Shown piece by piece: positions 43,188 through 56,407 of a stretch of 64,000 bases of DNA (its first letter is position 1; each line of letters opens with the position of its first letter). The stretch comes from a virus. The position numbers were made by a program, and so were the translations under genes. Location of the stretch: IMG/VR virus record IMGVR_UViG_3300037232_000040; one strand, given 5' to 3'. The notes beneath the pieces are model-generated. The model worked only from the letters and a program-made list of their open reading frames with translations. It was not told where the DNA came from and ran no database searches.

Positions 43188-43314
43188 AACCAGCGGACCA
43201 AAAATGCAAACCGCTACGGCCAGCGTTAACTAGTTAGCAAGATACACAACAGCTAGGCACACTTGCAAGCACAAAGAACCGCCTTCGCGCTCTGTGGTGG
43301 GTGTGATAATTGTG

Positions 43315-43330
43315 TAAACACCAATGTTTA
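43315..43330. promoter_or_regulatory. operator-like palindrome TAAACA-N4-TGTTTA
   Basis: taaaca ccaa tgttta is a perfect 6-bp inverted repeat. Confidence 0.4.
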
Positions 43331-43372
43331 AGCACCCGGGAGCCACAAAACCGAGCGCTAAAATATAATGTG

Positions 43373-43388
43373 TAAACAAATATGTTAA
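43373..43388. promoter_or_regulatory. second operator-like site TAAACA-N4-TGTTAA, overlapping a TATAAT hexamer at 43364-43369
   Basis: tataatgtg taaaca aata tgttaa. A third half-site, gcgtaaaca, lies at 43401-43409. Confidence 0.35.
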
Positions 43389-43649
43389 TTGCAAAAACCT
43401 GCGTAAACATTGGCTGTAACCATCTCTATTTAACACATTAACACATTAACATATATATATATATGTATGTAATAGAGAGGGACACTAAGGATAATACTAT
43501 AGATTGAGATACCTAAGAGTTTTGCCCCTGCTAATTGGTTACTGTTAATTTTTCAAACAGCAGCTAAACACAAGCAAACAAAACACTTATGCAATTAACA
43601 CACTTTAGATTGCTTAGGCCTGTGCGGCTGTGCTAGCCTAGCTTAGCGC

Positions 43650-44066
43650 TTGCACTCACAGTACTTAGTTTTATGTGGTGCTGCCCGCCGCCACAAACTA
43701 GTTCTCGAAAGGACACAAAAAGCATTGTCTCAACAAGAATGCACACTGCTAATACACATACCCACAGACTTGCTGTTGGCCCTAGATGCCGCTGTACAAC
43801 GTGCCATGTGCCTGCACCTGCAGCAGCCTGTACACAAACCTATAAAGGTAATAAACACACAGCAGGAGATAAACCAAGCCCTGTTATGGCTAAGGGCTGG
43901 CAGCCGCACCACTAGTGAAGTAAACATATGGCTACGCTTAAAGGCCCGCGAACGTGCTACCAACAGCGGTATACCACGCGTTAACCGCCAGCCCAGCCGC
44001 ACCAGCGTAGCACTGCAAATGTTGCGTACGGCGCTAAAACAAGACGAAGCGCAGCATGGCGCATAA
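43650..44066 (+). CDS. hypothetical protein, possible ribbon-helix-helix-like regulator
   Basis: Non-ATG start. LLIHIPTDLLLALDAAVQRA resembles an RHH strand-helix. Weak. Confidence 0.3.
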   Translation: MHSQYLVLCGAARRHKLVLERTQKALSQQECTLLIHIPTDLLLALDAAVQRAMCLHLQQPVHKPIKVINTQQEINQALLWLRAGSRTTSEVNIWLRLKARERATNSGIPRVNRQPSRTSVALQMLRTALKQDEAQHGA

Positions 44067-44303: not shown

Positions 44304-46406
44304 ATGGAGGTATTAAGTGCTACCGTGGGTAAGCCGCACAGCGTATTTGCAACTATTAAACAGGTAGAGCAGGCTATGCTAGAGAAGCTACATGCTAGCG
44401 CACTCAGCAGCCAAGACGCCCACCTGTTGCAGTACACACCTTTAACCAGCCAACAAGTGGCCACTGCCCACGCCACGTTGCCCGCACACCGGGCTGGGTT
44501 TGTGATTCCGTACTTTAGTATAAACGGCAAGCCTAGTAAGTTTTACCGATTTAGGTACTTGGAGTATGGCCACGACAGTGGGTTTGCTCGGCTAGTGGCT
44601 GCGCAGTTAAAACAGTTGCGCTACGGGCAGACCGTAGGCACCATGAATGAGTTGTATCTGCCACCCTACATAGACTGGGCTGCGTACAGCAAGGATGCCA
44701 GCAAGCCGGTGCTAATTACCGAAGGGGAATTAAAGGCTGCCTGCAGCACTAAGCACGGTGTGCCCTGCATAGGTTTGGGTGGAGTGTGGTGCTTTAAGGC
44801 CGGTGCCAGTGGTGTACATTTGTTGCCACAGTTTGCCGAATTTACTTGGAAGGATCGTGTGGTGTACATAGTGTACGATAGCGACGCGGCCAGCAACCAC
44901 CAAGTTGTAAAAGCTGAGAATGCGCTGGCCCGCGAGCTGTGTAATCTGGGCGCAGTACCAGCTGTAGTGCGTTTGCCCGCGCTACAGGCCGGTAGCAAGA
45001 CTGGGCTGGACGACTACATTGTGGCCCTTGGTACGGACAAATTAATGGAAGCACTATTGCTGCCAGCTGAGCCATGGCTGCGGGCAGCGGAGTTGCATCA
45101 GCTGAATGAGGAGGTGATTTACGTAGAAGAACCCGGCCTAATACTTAAGCTGGCTAACCTGCAACGCATGGCACCCCGTGCTTTTACTGACCACGCCTAC
45201 AGCACGCGCATATATCACGAGAACCAGGTTACGGCTACAACTACAAAGATGGTGGAGAAGAGCGCCGCTAAGGAGTGGCTTAAGTGGCCCGCGCGCGCCA
45301 CTGTGCACAAGGTAACGTACGCACCGGGGCAGCCTCGTGTAACTGCCAGCGGGGAGTTAAATGTGTGGAAAGGTTGGGCCGTGCAGCCTGCAGCGGGCAT
45401 TGTAGCGCCATGGACGCAACTGCTGGATTACTTGTTTGTCGGGGCTAAGTCCGATGATCGCACATGGTTTGAGCAATGGCTAGCTTATCCGCTGCAGTAC
45501 CCTGGTGAGAAGTTGTACAGTTGCTGCGTATTGTGGGGCAACCACCACGGCACTGGCAAAAGCGCTATAGGCTACACCATGTTTAAGATATATGGTGATA
45601 ACAGCACGGAAATAGGGGACCGCGATTTGTACAGCACCCATAATGAGTGGGCTGAGAACAAACAATTTGTCATGGGGGATGAGATAACCAGTGGCGGCGA
45701 GAACAAACGTAGTAGTGCTGACCGCATGAAGAGCATGATAACACAACGTTTGTTGCGGCTAAACCCCAAGTATATTAGTAGCTACACCGTGCCCGATTGC
45801 TTGAACTACTACTTTACCAGTAATCATCCGGACAGTTTTTTTATTGATGACAATGATCGCCGTTATTTTGTACACGAGGTTAAGGGGCAGCCGCAGCCCC
45901 GTAGTTTTTACATTAGTTATTTTGATTGGTTGGCGCAGAATGGCGCAGCGGCGCTGTTTTATTACCTGCTTAACCTGGACATGACAGGTTTTGATCCGGC
46001 TGGCAAAGCCCCGAGTACTAGCAGCAAGTTGGACATGATAGATAGTGGCCGTAGTGACTGCGCTAGCTGGGTAGCCATGCTAAAGGAAGAACCCGACCGT
46101 GTGTTGCAGGTGGGTGGTAAGCCGCTACACTACCAACTATGGACTACCACGGAGCTGCATGGTATCTACGACCCACAACGCGAAACCAGGGTAACGGCCA
46201 ATGGGTTGGCTAGAGAATTAAGACGTGCCGGGTTGTGTAAAGTGTTCGATGGGCAAGGTGTACCTACTACCTTGGGAGGCCGCCAGCGTTTGTGGGCCAT
46301 ACGCAATGCCGATAAGTTACTGCCGTTGGATAGTGGTAAGTTGGGCAAGATATACGATCAAGAAAGAGAGGCCGGTGGTGCAAGAAAAAGACAAACCAAA
46401 TTCTAA
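44304..46406 (+). CDS. bifunctional primase-helicase-like protein (Toprim/DUF3854-like N-domain plus P4/D5-type P-loop NTPase)
   Basis: VLITEGELKAAC...VVYIVYDSDAASN...GLDDYI is Toprim-like. ELNVWKGW and the Walker A GNHHGTGKS are D5/P4 helicase-like. Confidence 0.8.
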   Translation: MEVLSATVGKPHSVFATIKQVEQAMLEKLHASALSSQDAHLLQYTPLTSQQVATAHATLPAHRAGFVIPYFSINGKPSKFYRFRYLEYGHDSGFARLVAAQLKQLRYGQTVGTMNELYLPPYIDWAAYSKDASKPVLITEGELKAACSTKHGVPCIGLGGVWCFKAGASGVHLLPQFAEFTWKDRVVYIVYDSDAASNHQVVKAENALARELCNLGAVPAVVRLPALQAGSKTGLDDYIVALGTDKLMEALLLPAEPWLRAAELHQLNEEVIYVEEPGLILKLANLQRMAPRAFTDHAYSTRIYHENQVTATTTKMVEKSAAKEWLKWPARATVHKVTYAPGQPRVTASGELNVWKGWAVQPAAGIVAPWTQLLDYLFVGAKSDDRTWFEQWLAYPLQYPGEKLYSCCVLWGNHHGTGKSAIGYTMFKIYGDNSTEIGDRDLYSTHNEWAENKQFVMGDEITSGGENKRSSADRMKSMITQRLLRLNPKYISSYTVPDCLNYYFTSNHPDSFFIDDNDRRYFVHEVKGQPQPRSFYISYFDWLAQNGAAALFYYLLNLDMTGFDPAGKAPSTSSKLDMIDSGRSDCASWVAMLKEEPDRVLQVGGKPLHYQLWTTTELHGIYDPQRETRVTANGLARELRRAGLCKVFDGQGVPTTLGGRQRLWAIRNADKLLPLDSGKLGKIYDQEREAGGARKRQTKF

Positions 46407-46731
46407 ATGTTGCTACTCGTTGGTGTTTGTGTTTACCCCACAACTAGATAAGTTGGTGCTGCTTACTAACAGGATTTGGTTACGCAGTGAGGGAATTGTC
46501 GCGCTTGTGAAGATAAAGGCATTACGGCATGGTGGGTTGTTAAACGGGCCGGGAGGTAGGATGCATGCGTTTGAAGTCGCTCATCTTGCGCAGGTCGGCT
46601 CGCAGGCGCTTGTCAAATTCCTGCACGACCTTGTCGGGGTCTCGTTTGAGTTGCTCCGCGCGGTCCTCGGCAAGTTTGGTAACTGTGGGTTGCGTCGAAC
46701 ACCAGTAACGCGCCCCGTCCTGATAAAGGGA

Positions 46732-46761
46732 ATTATATACATGAGTCGCTAACCCTTTCAA
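46732..46761 (-). promoter_or_regulatory. sigma70-like promoter facing left (TTGAAA-N18-TATAAT)
   Basis: Read on the minus strand: ttgaaa gggttagcgactcatgta tataat. Confidence 0.4.
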
Positions 46762-46780
46762 AATAAAGCGAATAAAGTTC

Positions 46781-46809
46781 TTGACAAAATGCAGCGAGTT
46801 ATCTACTAT
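46781..46809 (+). promoter_or_regulatory. sigma70-like promoter facing right (TTGACA-N17-TACTAT)
   Basis: ttgaca aaatgcagcgagttatc tactat lies 40 nt upstream of the AGGAG-ATG of 46849. Confidence 0.5.
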
Positions 46810-46848
46810 AAAGACAGTTAAGCGGCATCCAGCCGCAGGAGAAATCAG

Positions 46849-47439
46849 ATGACAGCCACTCACACGACCCCGACCGGAAGCACCATCACGGTAGAGGGGA
46901 GCAAGCTCACAATCATCACCGCCGCCGGAAAGACCATCAACCTCAAATTGCAGCGCACCACCAAGCGGCTCGACAACAAGGCCGGATACCGAGTGATAGG
47001 CGATAACGTCTCGGTGCCTGACATCACAGCCGACTGGGTTGATGCTCAAGTCGCCGCATCCGAGCAGGCCGCGCAAGATGCTCTGGAGGCCGCCGTCCCT
47101 GGCATCCAAGAAATGATTCGCTTGAGCGATGCCGCTTACAACGAGCGCGAGCGCTACAGCCGCGAATTTAACCGCATGATGGACGACGAGTCGAATGACG
47201 GATGCCGCCCGCCGAAAGTCGAGAATAAGAGCTTTGCAGAGCAACTGGCTGCCATGATCGCCGCCAATCCCCGCGCTGCCCTGTACCTTAAGGCCAAACA
47301 GCAAGATGAGAGTGCGCACTGGGCCGATAACACTGGCAAAGGGTCGGCTGGTCGGAAAGCTATGGACATCCTTGCGGCTGGCGGATCGATTGCCGACGCG
47401 GAAGCGGCGATTGCTGTACGTCGCGAATTTATCGACTAA
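46849..47439 (+). CDS. hypothetical protein (196 aa), first gene of accessory cassette
   Basis: AGGAG RBS and GC3-rich codon usage. No motif recognised. Confidence 0.6.
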   Translation: MTATHTTPTGSTITVEGSKLTIITAAGKTINLKLQRTTKRLDNKAGYRVIGDNVSVPDITADWVDAQVAASEQAAQDALEAAVPGIQEMIRLSDAAYNERERYSREFNRMMDDESNDGCRPPKVENKSFAEQLAAMIAANPRAALYLKAKQQDESAHWADNTGKGSAGRKAMDILAAGGSIADAEAAIAVRREFID

Positions 47440-47466
47440 CTCACAATCACTGAGAGGAGCCCTAAA

Positions 47467-47709
47467 ATGAGAGCCACTGTAATCATCGACAAAAGAGCCA
47501 ACCATTACGTCGCGACCGTGAGCGGCAAATTCGGGGGCGGATTTATGGGAGCGCACGTCGGAACCACCCCAGAGCAGGCTGCCGGATTCGCAGCAAGGCA
47601 AATGGTCAGATATGCTTGTAGCAATAGCGAGGGCGGCGATCTGGTTGCGCCCGCCGAAGTGCTGCAACTTGTCCCGGATAATTTGCGATCTGTGCCAGCG
47701 CGAACTTGA
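47467..47709 (+). CDS. hypothetical protein (80 aa)
   Basis: GAGGAG lies upstream. Track ORF. Confidence 0.5.
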   Translation: MRATVIIDKRANHYVATVSGKFGGGFMGAHVGTTPEQAAGFAARQMVRYACSNSEGGDLVAPAEVLQLVPDNLRSVPART

Positions 47710-47790
47710 TCTCCACCACAGCCCACTCCGGGCTTGAGGAGCGTCGGGGCTGGAACCTCGGGCCGGTACGTAACCCGGCATGGAGTCTTT

Positions 47791-48165
47791 ATGAGCAAGA
47801 GCACGATCAGTACCTTCCAGCTTTTCGAGATGTTCCCGACGCCTGAGTCGGCACGGTTGTACCTCGAATCGCGCATCTGGCCCGATGGTCCGTTCTGCCC
47901 TGAGTGCAAGAGCCGTGAGCGCATCGGTAAGCAGCCCAAAGTTGGCTTCTATCGCTGCAACGCCTGTAAGCTCGATTTTACGATTCGTACTGGCACCATC
48001 TTCGAGCGGTCGCACATCCCGCTTCACAAATGGCTTTACGCCATGTATCTGCTCGTCACTGCTCGCAAGGGTATTTCCTCTCTGCAACTTGGAAAGGAAA
48101 TTGGAGTTACACAGAAATCCGCGTGGTTTATGCTGCAACGGCTCCGCGAGGCTAGAAACGGGTGA
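47791..48165 (+). CDS. IS1595-family transposase N-terminal Zn-ribbon + HTH domain only (no DDE domain), paralog A
   Basis: FPTPESARLYLESRIWPDGPFCPECKS...FYRCNACKLDFTIRTGTIFERSHIPLHKWLYAMYLL..ARKGISSLQLGKEIGVTQKSAWFMLQRLR matches the IS1595 zinc-ribbon/HTH module. The ORF stops after 124 aa. Confidence 0.75.
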   Translation: MSKSTISTFQLFEMFPTPESARLYLESRIWPDGPFCPECKSRERIGKQPKVGFYRCNACKLDFTIRTGTIFERSHIPLHKWLYAMYLLVTARKGISSLQLGKEIGVTQKSAWFMLQRLREARNG

Positions 48166-48229
48166 GACCATGTTGCAGTGTGCCGCGCGTGAGTTTTTCG
48201 GGCGCGCTCCGGATGGTGTCAAAGCCCAA

Positions 48230-48264
48230 GAGCCGGAAGATGAGGAGTCCTGATATGAAACCGA
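48230..48264 (+). repeat. 35-bp exact repeat (partner 1444..1478)
   Basis: Identical string spanning a stop codon, RBS and start. Confidence 0.9.
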
Positions 48265-49055
48265 CATTCTTTGACCGCAAAGCAGTTGTCTACAAGCTGA
48301 CCGATGCCAACTCCCAGACCTACGACAAAACTCAATGGGGCGAAGGCGTGACCCACAGGACAAACGGAACCGATGAGCTGTGCGGGCCGGGATGGTTACA
48401 TGCTTATACCCATCCGTTGCTTGCGGTTTTCCTCAATCCGATACATGCGAATTTTGTCAATCCGATTTTGTGGGAAGCGGAGGCCGACGGGAAAACTCTT
48501 TCCGATAAAGGACTAAAAGTCGGCTACTCCGAGATCACCACAATACGCCAAATCCCGTTACCCGTTGTAACCACTTTCCATCGAATCCGCTTTGCTATAC
48601 TTTGCGCCCAATCCGTGTATAAAAACTCGGATTGGCTTGCTTGGGCCGACAACTGGCTATCCGGTAAGGACCGCTCGGCGGAGGCGGCGGCGGCGGCGGA
48701 GGCGGAGGCGCGGGCGGCGTGGGCGGCGGAGGCGCGGGCGGCGTGGGCGGCGAAGTGGGCACCGGGGGCGGCGTGGGCGGAGGCGCGGGCGGCGTGGGCG
48801 GCGAAGTGGGCACCGGGGGCGGCGTGGGCGGAGGCGCGGGCGGCGTGGGCGGCGAAGTGGGCACCGGGGGCGGCGGCGTGGGCGGCGTGGGCGGCGGGGG
48901 CGAAGTGGGCGGCGGAGGCGGCGGGGGCGGCGGCGCGGGCGGCGGAGTGGGCGGCGGAGGCGGATATAGACCTTATCGCAATCGCACAGCAGGTCGGCGA
49001 ATTCGATACTGACGTTCCGAAGGTCATTTGCGACAATTTTGCTGGCAGATATTGA
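48255..49055 (+). CDS. two-part protein: conserved-looking N-domain plus Ala/Trp tandem-repeat region
   Basis: ATG at 48255. N-domain reads YKLTDANSQTY..TQWGEGVTH..LCGPGWLHAYTHPLLAVFLNPIHANF. It is followed by (EARAAWAAKWAPGAAWA)x3 within a ~95-aa A/W/E/R tract, then a unique tail. Confidence 0.6.
   Translation: MKPTFFDRKAVVYKLTDANSQTYDKTQWGEGVTHRTNGTDELCGPGWLHAYTHPLLAVFLNPIHANFVNPILWEAEADGKTLSDKGLKVGYSEITTIRQIPLPVVTTFHRIRFAILCAQSVYKNSDWLAWADNWLSGKDRSAEAAAAAEAEARAAWAAEARAAWAAKWAPGAAWAEARAAWAAKWAPGAAWAEARAAWAAKWAPGAAAWAAWAAGAKWAAEAAGAAARAAEWAAEADIDLIAIAQQVGEFDTDVPKVICDNFAGRY
48676..48962 (+). repeat. extremely GC-rich tandem repeat, core 51 bp x3 (48729..48881)
   Basis: gaggcgcgggcggcgtgggcggcgaagtgggcaccgggggcggcgtgggcg starts at 48729, 48780 and 48831. 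Confidence 0.9.
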
Positions 49056-49115
49056 GCAAGCATACCAACAGCTTGACGTTATTGTTGAGCGTATTAAACG
49101 GAGGGTACAAATCTC

Positions 49116-49319
49116 ATGAGTGTTATTGCAACCTGTATACATTGCAGTAGCGTGCTTACTATTGTCCCGCTTGGTCCGGCTACTGGTGGTTTGCTGCGGC
49201 GTGCCTTTGCTGCTACATGCGGCACCTGTCAATCGGGGTACACCATTGAGATACAGCAGAGAGTGGCCAGCCCACTAACCGCTGCAAGGCTAAGCGAAGT
49301 AAAGAACAGGAACCACTAA
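49116..49319 (+). CDS. hypothetical zinc-ribbon-like protein (67 aa)
   Basis: CIHC ... CGTC pairs. Track ORF. Confidence 0.45.
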   Translation: MSVIATCIHCSSVLTIVPLGPATGGLLRRAFAATCGTCQSGYTIEIQQRVASPLTAARLSEVKNRNH

Positions 49320-49371: not shown

Positions 49372-49776
49372 ATGAAGATTCCTCGTACAACCGTGCCCCG
49401 GCCTACCAGGGTTAAGCCGCGTTGCGTCACATACTACGAGCTGTTGGCCGCGCCACCGGGCAGCACCGTAGAGGAGCTACACATCAGTTTTAAGCGCTTG
49501 GTTGTGCTGTGGCACCCCGACAAGGCTACAGGCAACACGGCAGTGTACCAACGTATAACACAAGCATGGGGTGTGCTTAAGAACTCGCAACTGCGTAGGG
49601 AGTACGATGCCCGGCTAACCCTGCAGGGTAGTCAATGTATGTATTGCCAAGGCAAAGGGCTGCGCAGTATGCAGCAGAGCCTTACGGTGCGTCTGCAGCA
49701 CATGTGCGATAAATGCAACGGCACTGGGCAGGCCGACGGTGGGCTGCTCGCTAACGAAGTGTGGGAGTGTGTGTAA
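49372..49776 (+). CDS. DnaJ-like protein: J-domain plus CxxCxGxG zinc-finger repeats
   Basis: YYELLAAPPGSTVEELHISFKRLVVLWHPDK contains the HPD motif. CMYCQGKG and CDKCNGTG repeats follow. Confidence 0.8.
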   Translation: MKIPRTTVPRPTRVKPRCVTYYELLAAPPGSTVEELHISFKRLVVLWHPDKATGNTAVYQRITQAWGVLKNSQLRREYDARLTLQGSQCMYCQGKGLRSMQQSLTVRLQHMCDKCNGTGQADGGLLANEVWECV

Positions 49777-52735: not shown

Positions 52736-52860
52736 GGGAATTACATACTTAACTCCCGTCGAGCAGAAAAAAGATGAAAATAATGCTTGACAAGTGTGAG
52801 GGAGTAAAGTATATTAAGAACAGATCGAACAAGAGGTGCCAACCTCAAAGGAGCAGGAAA

Positions 52861-53379
52861 ATGACGAACTACACCGAAACCGAACTCGCTGAGATCATCA
52901 ACACGCTGTGCGAACAAGGTGTTAAGCCAACCGACGACTTTACCGCTGATGTTGGAAAAGATTACGGGTACGTCGCGGCCTATGAACTTGCATCCAGTAA
53001 AGGGTATGCGATTGCCTACGGCGATAATGGCCAAACAAATTATGCGATTGCCGAGACTGCCGACGATTTGGGCGATTGGCTCATCAGCCAAGATTTGAGC
53101 GGCCTCGACCTGCTCCGAAACCGTGCAAACGTATTCGGGATAAAATCCGTAGATGCTGCCGCAGAGAACACCACGAATCCTTGTGCGGTACTCATCAGCC
53201 GTGATTATTACGGACCCCACTCAGAGATCAGCGTGGCGATGGAAGATAATGGCCAGCGCGAAGCCGAGTTTGACAACGCAGAAGCCGCTCAGGTGTGGAT
53301 AAACGAAGCCGAAGAAGGCACCTATTACCTATCCCACAATGAGAGCGGTCGCCCCGAATACAAAGTGGTCGAACTCTAA
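52861..53379 (+). CDS. strongly acidic hypothetical protein (172 aa)
   Basis: AAGGAG RBS with ATG at 52861. Many Asp/Glu and few basic residues. Confidence 0.55.
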   Translation: MTNYTETELAEIINTLCEQGVKPTDDFTADVGKDYGYVAAYELASSKGYAIAYGDNGQTNYAIAETADDLGDWLISQDLSGLDLLRNRANVFGIKSVDAAAENTTNPCAVLISRDYYGPHSEISVAMEDNGQREAEFDNAEAAQVWINEAEEGTYYLSHNESGRPEYKVVEL

Positions 53380-53465
53380 GCTCCGCCGCGCCCTCAACCT
53401 TGGGTAAGCGGTGCGTCCCGCATGGCAGCGGGGGCCGGTACGGAACCCGGCAGAAGGTTAAAGCC

Positions 53466-53885
53466 ATGAGTAAAAGCACAATCAGCACATTCGAGCTTTT
53501 CCAAATGTTCCCCGATGAGGATACGGCGCGGACATACCTTGAGGCGCGATTGTGGCCGAACGGCGCGGTATGCCCAACTTGCGCAAGCAGCGACCGCATA
53601 ACTCCACGCCGGAAGGGTTTTTACCGCTGCAACGCCTGCCAGATTGACTTTACGATTCGCACCGGAACCATCTTCGAGCGGTCGCATATCCCCTTGCATA
53701 AGTGGCTCTACTCCATGTATTTGCTCGTGAGGGCCCGCAAGGGTATCTCTTCCATGCAACTTGCTAAAGAGATCGGGATTACCCAAAAATCTGCATGGTT
53801 TATGCTCGGTCGGCTCCACGAGGCTAAGCCTCGCGGAGGCGCGGTTGACGGCAAGCGGTTAACCTACGCGAGGTTGATTCGATGA
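53466..53885 (+). CDS. IS1595-family transposase N-terminal Zn-ribbon + HTH domain only, paralog B
   Basis: Same module as 47791..48165, about three quarters identical at nt level by eye. It ends ...GKRLTYARLIR, which resembles the extreme C-terminus of full-length ISXO2-like transposases and suggests an internal deletion of the DDE core. Confidence 0.75.
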   Translation: MSKSTISTFELFQMFPDEDTARTYLEARLWPNGAVCPTCASSDRITPRRKGFYRCNACQIDFTIRTGTIFERSHIPLHKWLYSMYLLVRARKGISSMQLAKEIGITQKSAWFMLGRLHEAKPRGGAVDGKRLTYARLIR

Positions 53886-54027
53886 CCAAGCCACCCGAAA
53901 TACTCAATAAGATGGCCGATTTGGTCCTTACCTACCGGCCACCATCAAAGGTCAAGCCACTGCGCAAGCGGAAGATCGCAGCGAGTAGGCGAGTCAAAGA
54001 AAACAAACAAGTGATATCAATGTGTGA

Positions 54028-54228
54028 GCCGGAGTGAAGTCCGCGATAACGAGCTGCAGATTCGTCGTAGCTTTCCGCATAGGCGAAGGCATCGTGCTCC
54101 CATGTCAACAGCGCCAGCCCGGCGCGAACAGCGTTCAGGAGAACACCGGTAGTCTGCAGGCGCGGCAGGTAAAGGTAGCGGCCAAAGTCCTCGACCAGCT
54201 GCCGGATCGCGACGTAATTTCCACGCCA
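54028..54228 (-). pseudogene. fragment resembling the C-terminal region of a DUF499-type ATPase (defence-island protein family)
   Basis: WRGNYVAIRQLVEDFGRYLYLPRLQTTGVLLNAVRAGLALLTWEHDAFAYAESYDESAARYRGL lies inside track ORF 53932..54363. There is no upstream ATPase region. Recognition is from memory only. Confidence 0.35.
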
Positions 54229-54424: not shown

Positions 54425-55413
54425 GCAAGAAACTGGAAAAGAAGTTGGCAACGTTTGAGGACGCTGCCAAAATTGAGGTAGCCCGCTTAACTGTATTAAA
54501 CGAGAACCTGCTGTGCTTGCTTATTAAGGTGGTGCAGGACGTAGGTTATACGCAGCACTGGCTAGACGCTGCTGGCAATCCGTGCAGCCAAATGCACCCA
54601 CAGGCCAAGCTAGTAAACAACGTATGGGACGGGCGTAAGTTTCTGTGCATTAGTAAACTAGAGTTTATGGGTGTGGACACTACGCGCTGGGCCATTGAAA
54701 CCAAGCACCAAGAAACGCAGCCTTACATGTACGTTATCCTTACACCGCATGAACCTACCACTGTCGAGCCGCTACCTGTGGCACTAGCCAGCGGTGGCTA
54801 CAGTACCGTGCAGCAGCCCATTACCAGCCCAGCGCAACCTACGGCCATGCGGTGCGCCGTGCACGGTATGTACGGTAATGTGGGTGCGTACTGTCCGGAG
54901 TGCGACGAAGAACGCGCTCAGCGCATTGTGTGCCGCAATGTGTTGCGCTACAAGCGTGATGATGGTGTGGTGGTAGATACCGTCGAAGAAGCTGCGTATG
55001 GAGATAGCGGTTATCACCTTATCCAGTGCGGGCACACTGCTAAGCAGCACATATACGGCGCTGGTAGGTGCAAGGTATGTGAGTGCACTGAGTTTTTATG
55101 CGCCCACAATGAGCGCAGGGTCAACTCAGAAACTGGAGATATAGGTTGTATGAACCCGGTTTGCGGCTGGCTTATAACCAAGGAACAGGCAATGGAGATG
55201 GCACAGCGCGGTCAACCACTGCCAGTGCAGGTCAGCGCGGCAGAGCTAGAAGCTGCACCTGCATGTCCTAGTTGCGGCAGCACAGGACGTAGCGAGCGGT
55301 TGTTTGTATTGGTAGACAACGCAGCGCACAGCTGTGAAAATGTGTGCACTGATGCGTGGCATGAAGAGACCGAAGGGGAACCAAGTGCGGATAACGAAAG
55401 AGACAGCAGCTAA
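54421..55413 (+). CDS. hypothetical Cys-rich protein (330 aa)
   Basis: Track ORF with several CxxC pairs in the C-terminal half. Confidence 0.55.
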   Translation: MSKKLEKKLATFEDAAKIEVARLTVLNENLLCLLIKVVQDVGYTQHWLDAAGNPCSQMHPQAKLVNNVWDGRKFLCISKLEFMGVDTTRWAIETKHQETQPYMYVILTPHEPTTVEPLPVALASGGYSTVQQPITSPAQPTAMRCAVHGMYGNVGAYCPECDEERAQRIVCRNVLRYKRDDGVVVDTVEEAAYGDSGYHLIQCGHTAKQHIYGAGRCKVCECTEFLCAHNERRVNSETGDIGCMNPVCGWLITKEQAMEMAQRGQPLPVQVSAAELEAAPACPSCGSTGRSERLFVLVDNAAHSCENVCTDAWHEETEGEPSADNERDSS

Positions 55414-56407
55414 GGCCGCAACGCCAAAAGCGGAGAAGGTCGCACCATCAACCTACCTCGCAAAGCTGAAGCAAGAAAGGATTGATCTCGATAATGAGTG
55501 CGAAGCCTTAGACCAACGGATCAGCGATATGGACGATAAGCGGAAGCTGTTGTTGCGGCGAAAGCAACTTATCGCGAAAATCAACGAAGAGCAGACCTAC
55601 CTCGCAAAGCTGAAGCAAGAAAGGATTGATCTCGATAATGAGTGCGAAGCCTTAGACCAACGGATCAGCGATACGGACGATGAGTGGAAGCCGCTGTCAG
55701 ACAAAAAGGCGTTGCTGAACTTGCGGCGGAAGCAACTTATCGCGAAAATCAACGAAGAGCAGAAAATCATTAGTTATGAAGAGCAATGGGTAAAAACTCC
55801 GCGCACCGAACCTAAAAACAAGATCATTATCGACTCCTATAAAAATAAGTGGGACTACCAGCGTGAGTACTTTATGAAAGCTCTGGAACCCGCGCGAGAT
55901 GCTTGGCTAGATCACGCCAATGAAATTTGCAAGACGGGTGAGCTGTGGGATTTCGAGGAACTCGCGAAGGCGGTTGTCTGGAATGAGTGCAATGAGAAGT
56001 TCCGACCGGAGGAATTTCCCAACGAGTTTATCCGCATCGAAGTTCCCGGCGCTGGCAAGTATTTAATCAAGAACACGGCCGCCGCAATTTACAAGATTCT
56101 AAAATCCGCGCCCACTGCATTCTCGAAACCCAAGTGCAACCAGCATCCCGAGGGATATCACAAAATCCTGGGCGAGAACGCCAAACAGGGGCGCCCCAAC
56201 CCAGAACTCAACCCTGAGAAGCTAATCTTGTTCCATGAGAAGCAGATCGCAGAACTTCGTGACAAGCGCAAGAAACTAACAGACGCAAAGGACGCCTCCT
56301 TCAATATAGACGCAAAGGACGTCTTCAATATAGACGAACAGATCAAGCAAGGCGAGAGCGACTTACGAGAAGCTCGCAATCTCAAAGGAGGATTCAAGTG
56401 CGTATAA
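55385..56407 (+). CDS. coiled-coil protein with an internal 144-bp tandem duplication
   Basis: GTG at 55385 gives VRITKETAAKAA, paralogous to the start of 56398. An alternative ATG is at 55361. TYLAKLKQERIDLDNECEALDQRISD occurs twice. Confidence 0.55.
   Translation: MRITKETAAKAATPKAEKVAPSTYLAKLKQERIDLDNECEALDQRISDMDDKRKLLLRRKQLIAKINEEQTYLAKLKQERIDLDNECEALDQRISDTDDEWKPLSDKKALLNLRRKQLIAKINEEQKIISYEEQWVKTPRTEPKNKIIIDSYKNKWDYQREYFMKALEPARDAWLDHANEICKTGELWDFEELAKAVVWNECNEKFRPEEFPNEFIRIEVPGAGKYLIKNTAAAIYKILKSAPTAFSKPKCNQHPEGYHKILGENAKQGRPNPELNPEKLILFHEKQIAELRDKRKKLTDAKDASFNIDAKDVFNIDEQIKQGESDLREARNLKGGFKCV
55451..55762 (+). repeat. tandem duplication, unit 144 bp (second copy carries a ~24-bp insertion)
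   Basis: acctacctcgcaaagctgaagcaagaaaggattgatctcgataatgagtgcgaagcc... starts at 55451 and 55595. Confidence 0.85.

Follow-up and report, generated by a model that had tools for sequence, protein, structure and literature searches.

The 64,000-nucleotide (nt) stretch of viral DNA analysed here, IMG/VR record IMGVR_UViG_3300037232_000040 (the window), covers nearly the entire genome of an uncultured phage, which has a source contig of about 64.9 kb and was assembled from many samples. Behind the primase-helicase gene, positions 46728-48165 were identified, with a probability of roughly 0.8, as the left part of a passenger-carrying transposon of the IS1595 family, lying beside a scrap of a bacterial hmaC gene and an unrelated gene of the DUF7666 family. 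Judged from its sequence, this copy keeps the left terminal repeat, a promoter, a pair of passenger genes for proteins of 196 and 80 amino acids (aa), and a DNA-binding stub of 124 aa. The DDE domain of the transposase, a small open reading frame (ORF) and the right repeat have been lost, so the copy is no longer mobile. On the left, the repeat tip borders exactly on about 180 bp of hmaC. The features of the element and its left flank are as follows.

46547..46732, minus strand: internal fragment of a bacterial hmaC/DUF499 AAA+ ATPase gene, about 57-62 codons (PADLOC HmaC, E 1e-9, positions 493-549 of 941)
46728..46750, plus strand: left terminal inverted repeat (IRL) of an IS1595-family element, starting with GGGAATTATATACATG, from comparison of the repeat with related elements
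46761..46732, minus strand: leftward promoter-like site, TTGAAA-N18-TATAAT, score 11/12, with its -10 within the IRL and pointing outward
46781..46809, plus strand: the element's own promoter, TTGACA-N17-TACTAT, score 10/12, conserved in related elements
46810..46848, plus strand: 5' leader with a small hairpin GCGGC/GCCGC (46822-46836), then AGGAG, conserved in locus L024
46849..47439, plus strand: passenger gene 1, 196 aa (ORF, alignment and AlphaFold2 model)
47467..47709, plus strand: passenger gene 2, 80 aa (ORF and metagenomic homologues)
47710..47790, plus strand: leader 5' of the truncated transposase gene, with two hairpins, common to a second copy in the window (copy B, 53380-53465)
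47791..48165, plus strand: DDE-less remnant of an IS1595 transposase, 124 aa, with Zn-ribbon and helix-turn-helix (HTH) (PF12760, E 1e-8)

The 16-mer GGGAATTATATACATG at 46728 adjoins the hmaC scrap, and an exact 15-mer of this left repeat marks the start of the cassette in L115-L118 and L124. An inverted copy of the repeat lies 3' of the full-length transposase genes in L118 and L140. Within the window, no right inverted repeat could be found with up to 5 substitutions allowed, and left ends occurred only at 46728 and 52736.

A scan of IMG/VR with a 21-mer of the repeat gave nine viral contigs. The intact elements share one order, from left repeat and sigma70-type promoter through one or two passenger genes, the transposase and an ORF of about 40 aa to the right repeat; they encode a DDE transposase of 314-316 aa (Zn-ribbon/HTH plus DDE) and have an 8-bp target duplication. 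In L118 the 314-aa transposase contains Zn_ribbon_IS1595 and DDE_Tnp_IS1595 (E 3e-43), and a 40-aa ORF and the inverted motif come after its gene; the DDE_Tnp_IS1595 domain is also present in L138 and L140. L138 has the intact form of the cassette in the window, with the repeat, the promoter, homologues of the 196-aa and 80-aa proteins, a full 314-aa transposase and the small ORF. L140 contains a complete element of 1977 bp with both repeats and a 316-aa transposase; its cargo is different (184 aa and 70 aa), and its flanks carry the 8-bp duplication TTAGATTG. L141 is flanked by the 8-bp duplication CTCGTTTG, while L137 holds a DDE-deleted element of 1028 bp with both ends and a T-run target duplication.

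Both terminal repeats are present in L118, L137, L140 and L141. Considering their sequences, the DDE-deleted elements of L137 and L141, with both repeats and clean duplications, are probably non-autonomous derivatives mobilised in trans. At L118:1134-1460, the transposase gene of one element is broken off at codon 109 by another element's left repeat; at this junction the target duplication is absent and the interrupted gene is not continued beyond, which suggests that there was an adjacent deletion or that two copies recombined. The cargo varies by copy, with at least seven unrelated cargos, several of them strongly acidic, and the cargo proteins of the related elements matched nothing in Pfam or PADLOC. 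The contigs bearing the element are phage-like: a small-terminase gene was found in L115 and a VRR-NUC-like nuclease in L124, and nine further copies are in IMG/VR contigs.

The third gene of the cassette had been described before as an IS1595-type Zn-ribbon/HTH protein without DDE, and this holds. The 124-aa protein covers the NF033547 profile at positions 1-50 only, and shares 71% identity with residues 1-125 of the L118 transposase (314 aa). The DDE_Tnp_IS1595 domain (PF12762) is absent from both copies in the window, with about 180 residues missing, so these copies are derivatives and not functional IS1595 members. The second, likewise decayed copy of the same element family is composed of the following parts.

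52736..54037, plus strand: copy B as a whole, with repeat-like end, promoter, passenger, transposase and small ORF
52736-52751, plus strand: IRL-like end with a 13/16 match (repeat comparison)
52787-52815, plus strand: promoter TTGACA-N17-TATATT (consensus and position)
52861-53379, plus strand: passenger gene, ORF of 172 aa, net charge -22
53466-53885, plus strand: transposase of 139 aa with an internal DDE deletion (PF12760, E 2e-11)
53885-54037, plus strand: small downstream ORF (MTKPPEILNKMADLVLTYRP...)

The 139-aa paralogue is 75% identical to the 124-aa protein and also aligns to residues 1-125 of the full transposase. In copy B the last ten residues of the transposase and the small ORF behind it are preserved, so the internal deletion was evidently in frame. 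The ratio of nonsynonymous to synonymous substitution rates (dN/dS) between the 124-aa and 139-aa stubs is 0.08. Together with the recurrence of DDE-less forms in L135, L137 and L141, this makes the retention of the DNA-binding part look selected, as far as sequence comparison can tell. The leaders of the two transposase genes share a direct repeat (47738-47780 and 53410-53452) and fold into the same two hairpins, with the sequence of the first hairpin differing between the copies. In related elements this leader spacer is missing, and the transposase gene starts directly at the passenger gene's stop codon.

Back-to-back promoters had been proposed at the left end of the cassette. Both promoter-like sites are present, 11/12 on the minus and 10/12 on the plus strand, and they are the best two matches in 43-52 kb. 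In the whole window, 8 matches of at least 10/12 were counted vs 7.0 +/- 2.8 in shuffles, which puts the bare consensus at chance level. The rightward promoter is credible because of its conservation across related elements, not because of its consensus score. Its architecture, CTTGAC[A/T] or CTTGCAA, N17 and TACTAT, located 50-65 nt inside the IRL, recurs in all copies, and promoters of this type are common to L116, L118 (two copies), L124, L135, L137, L138, L140, L141 and copy B of the window. In this respect the cassette does bring its own promoter along. The promoter and a 30-nt leader stretch are also kept 5' of a lone 196-aa homologue in L024, where the stretch is the same save one loop base and the 196-aa proteins are just 61% identical. 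The fold energy of the leader hairpin is not exceptional (z -1.5 to -1.8), and covariation is absent.

Read on the minus strand, the terminal repeat itself gives the leftward -10 (CATGTATATAATTCCC), which is conserved solely as a part of this repeat. A -35-like TTGAAG stands 20 nt from the leftward -10 in canonical copies, and the spacing of 18 nt occurs only in the window. From its sequence the leftward site may be an outward promoter, or it may be accidental. The unit had also been called self-contained, but no terminator-like site exists within 46400-49300, so its 3' end is open.

The preliminary description had placed four tightly packed genes in the rightward unit. All four ORFs are present, at 46849-47439, 47467-47709, 47791-48165 (ATG) and 48255-49055 (ATG), and the exact proteins were called in 6-36 independent contigs. 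In the 196-aa protein, a beta-rich N-terminal domain is variable and a helical C-terminal one, with the motifs PRAALYLKA and WADNTGKGAAG, is conserved; 38 metagenomic homologues were collected. The structure prediction recommended for it gave a confident AlphaFold2 model (predicted local distance difference test, pLDDT, 87) but no fold match in PDB, only a single uncharacterised Siphoviridae protein at E 3e-3. No family was assigned to it by Pfam, PHROG, PADLOC or NCBIfam, and no protein match was obtained in INPHARED. For the 80-aa protein there are 23 metagenomic homologues, its own cluster not counted, and no Pfam, PHROG, PADLOC or NCBIfam family or PDB match. PDB sequence searches with these two passenger proteins and with the leftward ORF returned nothing useful.

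The linkage of these genes was visible in a metagenome profile scan. The 196-aa protein has homologues in L115-L118 and L124 (53-70%), each with a homologue of the 80-aa protein (46-49%) directly behind it, and an IS1595 Zn-ribbon gene (64-68%) is third in the row in L116, L118 and L124. The 80-aa homologue also stands behind the 196-aa homologue in L136 and L138. The three genes are therefore linked in one subclade of loci (L115-L118, L124, L136, L138), which is explained by their being the cargo and the transposase of one transposon. This trio overturned a reading tried on nine contexts, three each for the 196-aa, 80-aa and 266-aa proteins, that gene linkage was not conserved at all. The co-occurrence analysis that had been proposed bore out the first three genes as a group; the fourth was not linked to them in the loci seen. 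Homologues standing alone were found as well, those of the 196-aa protein in L024-L028 and L119-L133, and those of the 80-aa protein in L032, L033 and L114.

Some of these lone homologues have neighbours of their own. L024 (ENA contig_89688, 41.9 kb) is phage-like and has type IV CRISPR-Cas genes (Csf1 and Csf3 matches) about 3-6 kb from the 196-aa homologue. In L025/L026 a 275-aa homologue lies beside InPase, ART-PolyVal/Zeta-toxin polyvalent proteins and a TnpB gene, and a giant gene for a methylase-helicase (more than 2300 aa) is in the same neighbourhood.

The Hma system, to which HmaC belongs as its DUF499 ATPase, has since been described anew as BREX-related (PMC11232893, PMC12839542). 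The leftward side of the cassette, formerly taken for a possible free-standing gene or small RNA, is a fragment of this gene, and the region gave no match in Rfam. A phmmer search with the leftward product retrieved 247 cluster representatives, mostly within long proteins, with residues 11-69 being 70-81% identical, and more than 386 loci with a matching segment came up in species-representative genomes. The best matches were from metagenome-assembled genomes of Acidobacteriota/Terriglobia and Planctomycetaceae, with 86-91% identity in protein and 84-88% in DNA over 46547/46559-46729/46732. In L039 and L040 the segment is located at about residue 669 of a 1110-aa ORF. The hmaC homology stops at 46729-46732 and the repeat begins at 46728; this junction is identical in assemblies from at least 8 samples.

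By its sequence, the leftward ORF is best read as a pseudogene scrap of hmaC. No usable start codon follows the putative leftward start site; translation from the first in-frame ATG would cover 14 codons. Three private substitutions of the phage copy fall on sites at which all 10 bacterial copies compared agree, and its dN/dS is about twice the bacterial value. A full-length HmaC (about 900-1100 aa) beside hmaA and hmaB was not found in the window, and none of 80 bacterial hmaC loci contained a cassette gene or the transposon repeat.

A plus-strand ORF at 46561/46565 was considered as a gene and rejected, for it is the hmaC fragment read in antisense. This antisense frame is open at 46561-46752 (plus strand) in the window, and likewise in most bacterial hmaC genes at 74-93% identity. 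Most likely it is a by-product of the conserved, GC3-rich sense frame (GC3, G+C content at third codon positions).

The insert occupies a slot between two conserved genes of the replication arm, and the claim that it was inserted after the primase-helicase gene is correct. The anchors of the slot and the genes filling its right part are listed here.

44304..46406, plus strand: primase-helicase gene, 700 aa (Pfam DUF3854 and DUF5906, PHROG DNA primase), the conserved left anchor of the slot
48255..49055, plus strand: DUF7666-family protein with an Ala/Trp repeat tail, 266 aa (ATG start; homologue family)
49116..49319, plus strand: 67-aa CxxC...CxxC protein, lineage-specific, occupying the remainder of the slot (ORF and gene call)
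49372..49776, plus strand: DnaJ-like gene (NCBIfam DnaJ models, Pfam DnaJ PF00226, weakly DnaJ_CXXCXGXG), the conserved right anchor of the slot

Primase homologues with 45-58% identity were found in 19 IMG/VR contigs, and in 16 of these relatives the DnaJ-like gene is downstream of the primase, often directly, otherwise after 0.3-3.5 kb. None of the 19 has a homologue of any gene between 46407 and 49371, the cassette genes and the 67-aa gene included; the 67-aa protein also had no family match. L002 and L018 contain other cargo in the slot, including a 373-aa coiled-coil protein and ORFs which, judged from their translations alone, are methyltransferase-like and MazG-type. With different cargo there and none of the inserted genes in the relatives, the slot is a hotspot whose 3-kb filling in the window is lineage-specific. 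The same variable slot also holds two separate accessory genes, for the DUF7666 and the 67-aa protein. Contigs with a primase at least 90% identical all belong to the same phage (99.9-100% identity), which explains why an empty-site variant was not found.

The DUF7666 Ala/Trp gene is a separate, widespread accessory gene and not a part of the transposon, and no link to IS1595 was seen in any of its loci. The tandem repeat described earlier was confirmed, with a period of 51 nt and about 4.4-4.8 copies at 48712-48956. The N-terminal 140 residues belong to a very large family, in which more than 734 proteins were matched with about 60% identity. An Ala-rich low-complexity tail (AW, AS, AD or AY types) of variable length occurs in every family member inspected, and most longer members end in a short, loosely conserved hydrophobic stretch around D/N-L (IDLIAIA in the window). 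With DUF7666 (PF24703), the window protein scores 21-23 bits, the gathering cut-off being 27, and 21 of 23 aligned homologues match (best E 1.6e-10). In INPHARED the domain matches one unannotated metagenomic entry. Family members are found in arrays of small genes on long metagenomic contigs, such as L029 (with HNH and a UvrD-type helicase) and L030 (with a P22-family gene).

The best fold match of the DUF7666 domain is weak, to the rifampin ADP-ribosyltransferase Arr (PDB 2hw2 and 9iaf; Foldseek probability 0.82-0.89, E 0.16-0.19), with a template modelling (TM) score of 0.46-0.47 over about 128 columns. H34, H49, Y51 and H64 are invariant in the family, and invariant His and Tyr residues lie on strands. 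Arr has no counterpart of the long Ala-rich repeat tail. No sequence support for the link to Arr was obtained from a PDB profile search or a permissive Pfam scan. Several contigs of this phage (L143-L145) end within the Ala/Trp repeat, and the members of the cluster have 232-266 aa; as many contigs stop inside the repeat, this variation in length may be partly derived from assembly.

The switch to GC3-rich codons reported for the cassette is weak. GC3 is 0.68 (196-aa gene), 0.57 (80-aa gene), 0.66 (124-aa gene) and 0.59 (266-aa gene, N-terminal part), vs 0.47-0.70 in other genes, and only the Ala/Trp repeat (0.84) stands out.

In the rest of the genome, a minus-strand structural arm extends from about 9.6 to 41.3 kb with the terminase at its end, and a plus-strand replication arm runs from 44.3 kb onward. 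The products of the window include the DUF3854/DUF5906 primase-helicase, the DnaJ-like protein, a family A DNA polymerase, a PD-(D/E)XK nuclease, ERF and a ParB-like protein, and INPHARED contained no DNA match to the region. Between the two divergent arms there is an AT-rich stretch (43200-43800, GC 0.38-0.40) with (AT)n palindromes and short repeats, which by its composition may be an origin or a regulatory region. In addition, the ORF at 55334-56407 contains direct repeats at 55451-55763; those of 103 nt are 95% identical and those of 64 nt are 84% identical.

Taken as the left part of a transposon, the cassette might work as follows. Host RNA polymerase would initiate near 46816, whatever the phage programme, and transcribe the 196-aa, 80-aa and 124-aa genes, with read-through into the DUF7666 gene where there is no terminator. 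By analogy with InsA of IS1, the DDE-less stub could bind the repeat and tune the promoters at that end. The passenger proteins would serve the phage early in infection, and a host-directed early role is a guess. The hmaC scrap would be the footprint of an earlier residence of the element inside a host hmaC gene, and it probably entered the phage by recombination through a shared copy of the element.

Several points weigh against this reading. The copy in the window is one-ended, so its transposition cannot be shown, and among the sampled contigs no empty-site relative was found at close range. L115 and L117 have the 196-aa/80-aa pair without an upstream repeat, and L024 has the promoter and a 196-aa homologue without repeat or transposase; the cargo unit therefore exists outside the element too. 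The entry route of hmaC is conjectural, and the transcription starts, the binding of the repeat by the stub and the benefit of the cargo are putative.

The preliminary description had regarded the four genes as one autonomous operon for defence, anti-defence or superinfection exclusion, with cooperating parts. An own promoter and tight packing would agree with this, as would the lineage-specific insertion into a slot that holds methyltransferase-like and MazG-like ORFs in L002/L018, the uncharacterised state of all four proteins, and the joint recurrence of the first three genes in several phage loci. However, one transposon's cargo and transposase explain that recurrence, the DUF7666 gene was never linked to them in the loci seen, and the 196-aa and 80-aa homologues also occur singly. 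Nor could the footprint of a defence module be recognised with PADLOC-DB 2.0, in which the sole hit was the 57-residue HmaC scrap, and no model matched the 196-, 80-, 124-, 266-, 67- and 172-aa proteins or six other cargo proteins. A cooperating four-gene operon is consequently judged improbable.

A function for the hmaC fragment itself was also considered, in which sense or antisense RNA, or a peptide, expressed from the back-to-back promoters interferes with the Hma defence of the host. The fragment has an open frame of 73 codons with 91% protein identity, an 11/12 promoter-like site is aimed into it, read-through from the primase gene would yield RNA antisense to hmaC, and it is fixed in all sampled genomes of this phage. 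Yet the frame lacks a usable start, the -10 is merely a part of the transposon repeat, private substitutions hit residues invariant in bacteria, dN/dS is raised, the DNA identity to sampled genomes is at most 88%, and no other phage locus has such a fragment, so there is very little to expect from this explanation. Equally remote is the idea that the genes are ordinary early genes of the phage, with the motif (GGGAATTATATAC) as a phage regulatory site and the IS1595-like genes as long-domesticated phage regulators. It would account for the missing DDE domain and right end in both window copies, for the strong purifying selection on the stubs and for the recurrence of DDE-less forms in L135, L137 and L141, but not for full-length DDE transposases with inverted motif copies, for the exact 8-bp duplications in L140 and L141, or for the motif interrupting the transposase gene of another copy in L118. 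The decayed IS1595-family transposon with passengers remains the preferred explanation.

If this is right, the vehicle behind a phage accessory island can be named, with its ends, promoter and intact relatives visible, where morons are usually seen as unexplained inserts. It also yields a small catalogue of uncharacterised proteins moved between phages under selection (the 196-aa/80-aa pair, the 172-aa protein and others), which are reasonable candidates for screens of anti-defence or host-takeover functions. The hmaC scrap links the uncultured phage to hosts with Hma (BREX-related) systems, the closest copies being from Acidobacteriota, and shows DNA passing from a host defence locus into a phage. 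A wider proposal, rather doubtful at present, is that an IS1595 family in soil and peat phages shuttles promoter-equipped accessory genes, with a constant left repeat and promoter, swapped cargo and DDE-less copies as regulators; the cargos, the 196-aa/80-aa pair included, would be counter-defence or host-takeover factors, and the hmaC scrap would record the knockout of a host defence gene. No major concept is altered by these results, since passenger-carrying IS1595 elements and truncated transposase regulators were already known.

The Hma system consists of the helicase HmaA, the DUF1156 methylase HmaB and the DUF499 ATPase HmaC (PMC11232893, PMC12839542). The leftward ORF resembles it by 78-91% protein identity to an internal segment of HmaC, but the phage has about 60 of some 1000 codons and neither hmaA nor hmaB, which makes it a scrap and not a defence system. 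Passenger-carrying relatives of known insertion sequence (IS) families are documented, and PMC4611040 cites an IS1595-family paper for them; by its title, the article of Siguier, Gagnevin and Chandler 2009 (Res Microbiol 160:232; cited in PMC4611040 and PMC7986276) relates IS1595 to the IS1 family. The elements described here share with them the Zn-ribbon and HTH N-terminus, short terminal inverted repeats, internal genes not involved in transposition and, in the relatives, the DDE_Tnp_IS1595 domain and 8-bp target duplications. They differ in that the copies were found in phage genomes, that the passengers are placed between left repeat and transposase behind a conserved internal promoter, that the cargo is so variable (at least seven unrelated ones), and that the window copies are without DDE domain and right repeat.

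InsA of IS1 and other truncated transposase derivatives bind the ends of their elements and repress them. The stub in the window is likewise a small Zn-finger/HTH protein corresponding to the N-terminal DNA-binding part of a transposase and encoded near the left end and the promoter; its short form arose by deletion of the DDE region and not by programmed frameshifting, and binding and repression would be expected by analogy. Phage morons are accessory genes that carry a promoter of their own and have been inserted between conserved genes of a phage. The unit in the window is a similar, lineage-specific insert, with conserved genes on either side and a sigma70-type promoter of its own. Unlike a moron, it has no closing terminator, and its vehicle, a transposon, could be identified, which is unusual for morons.

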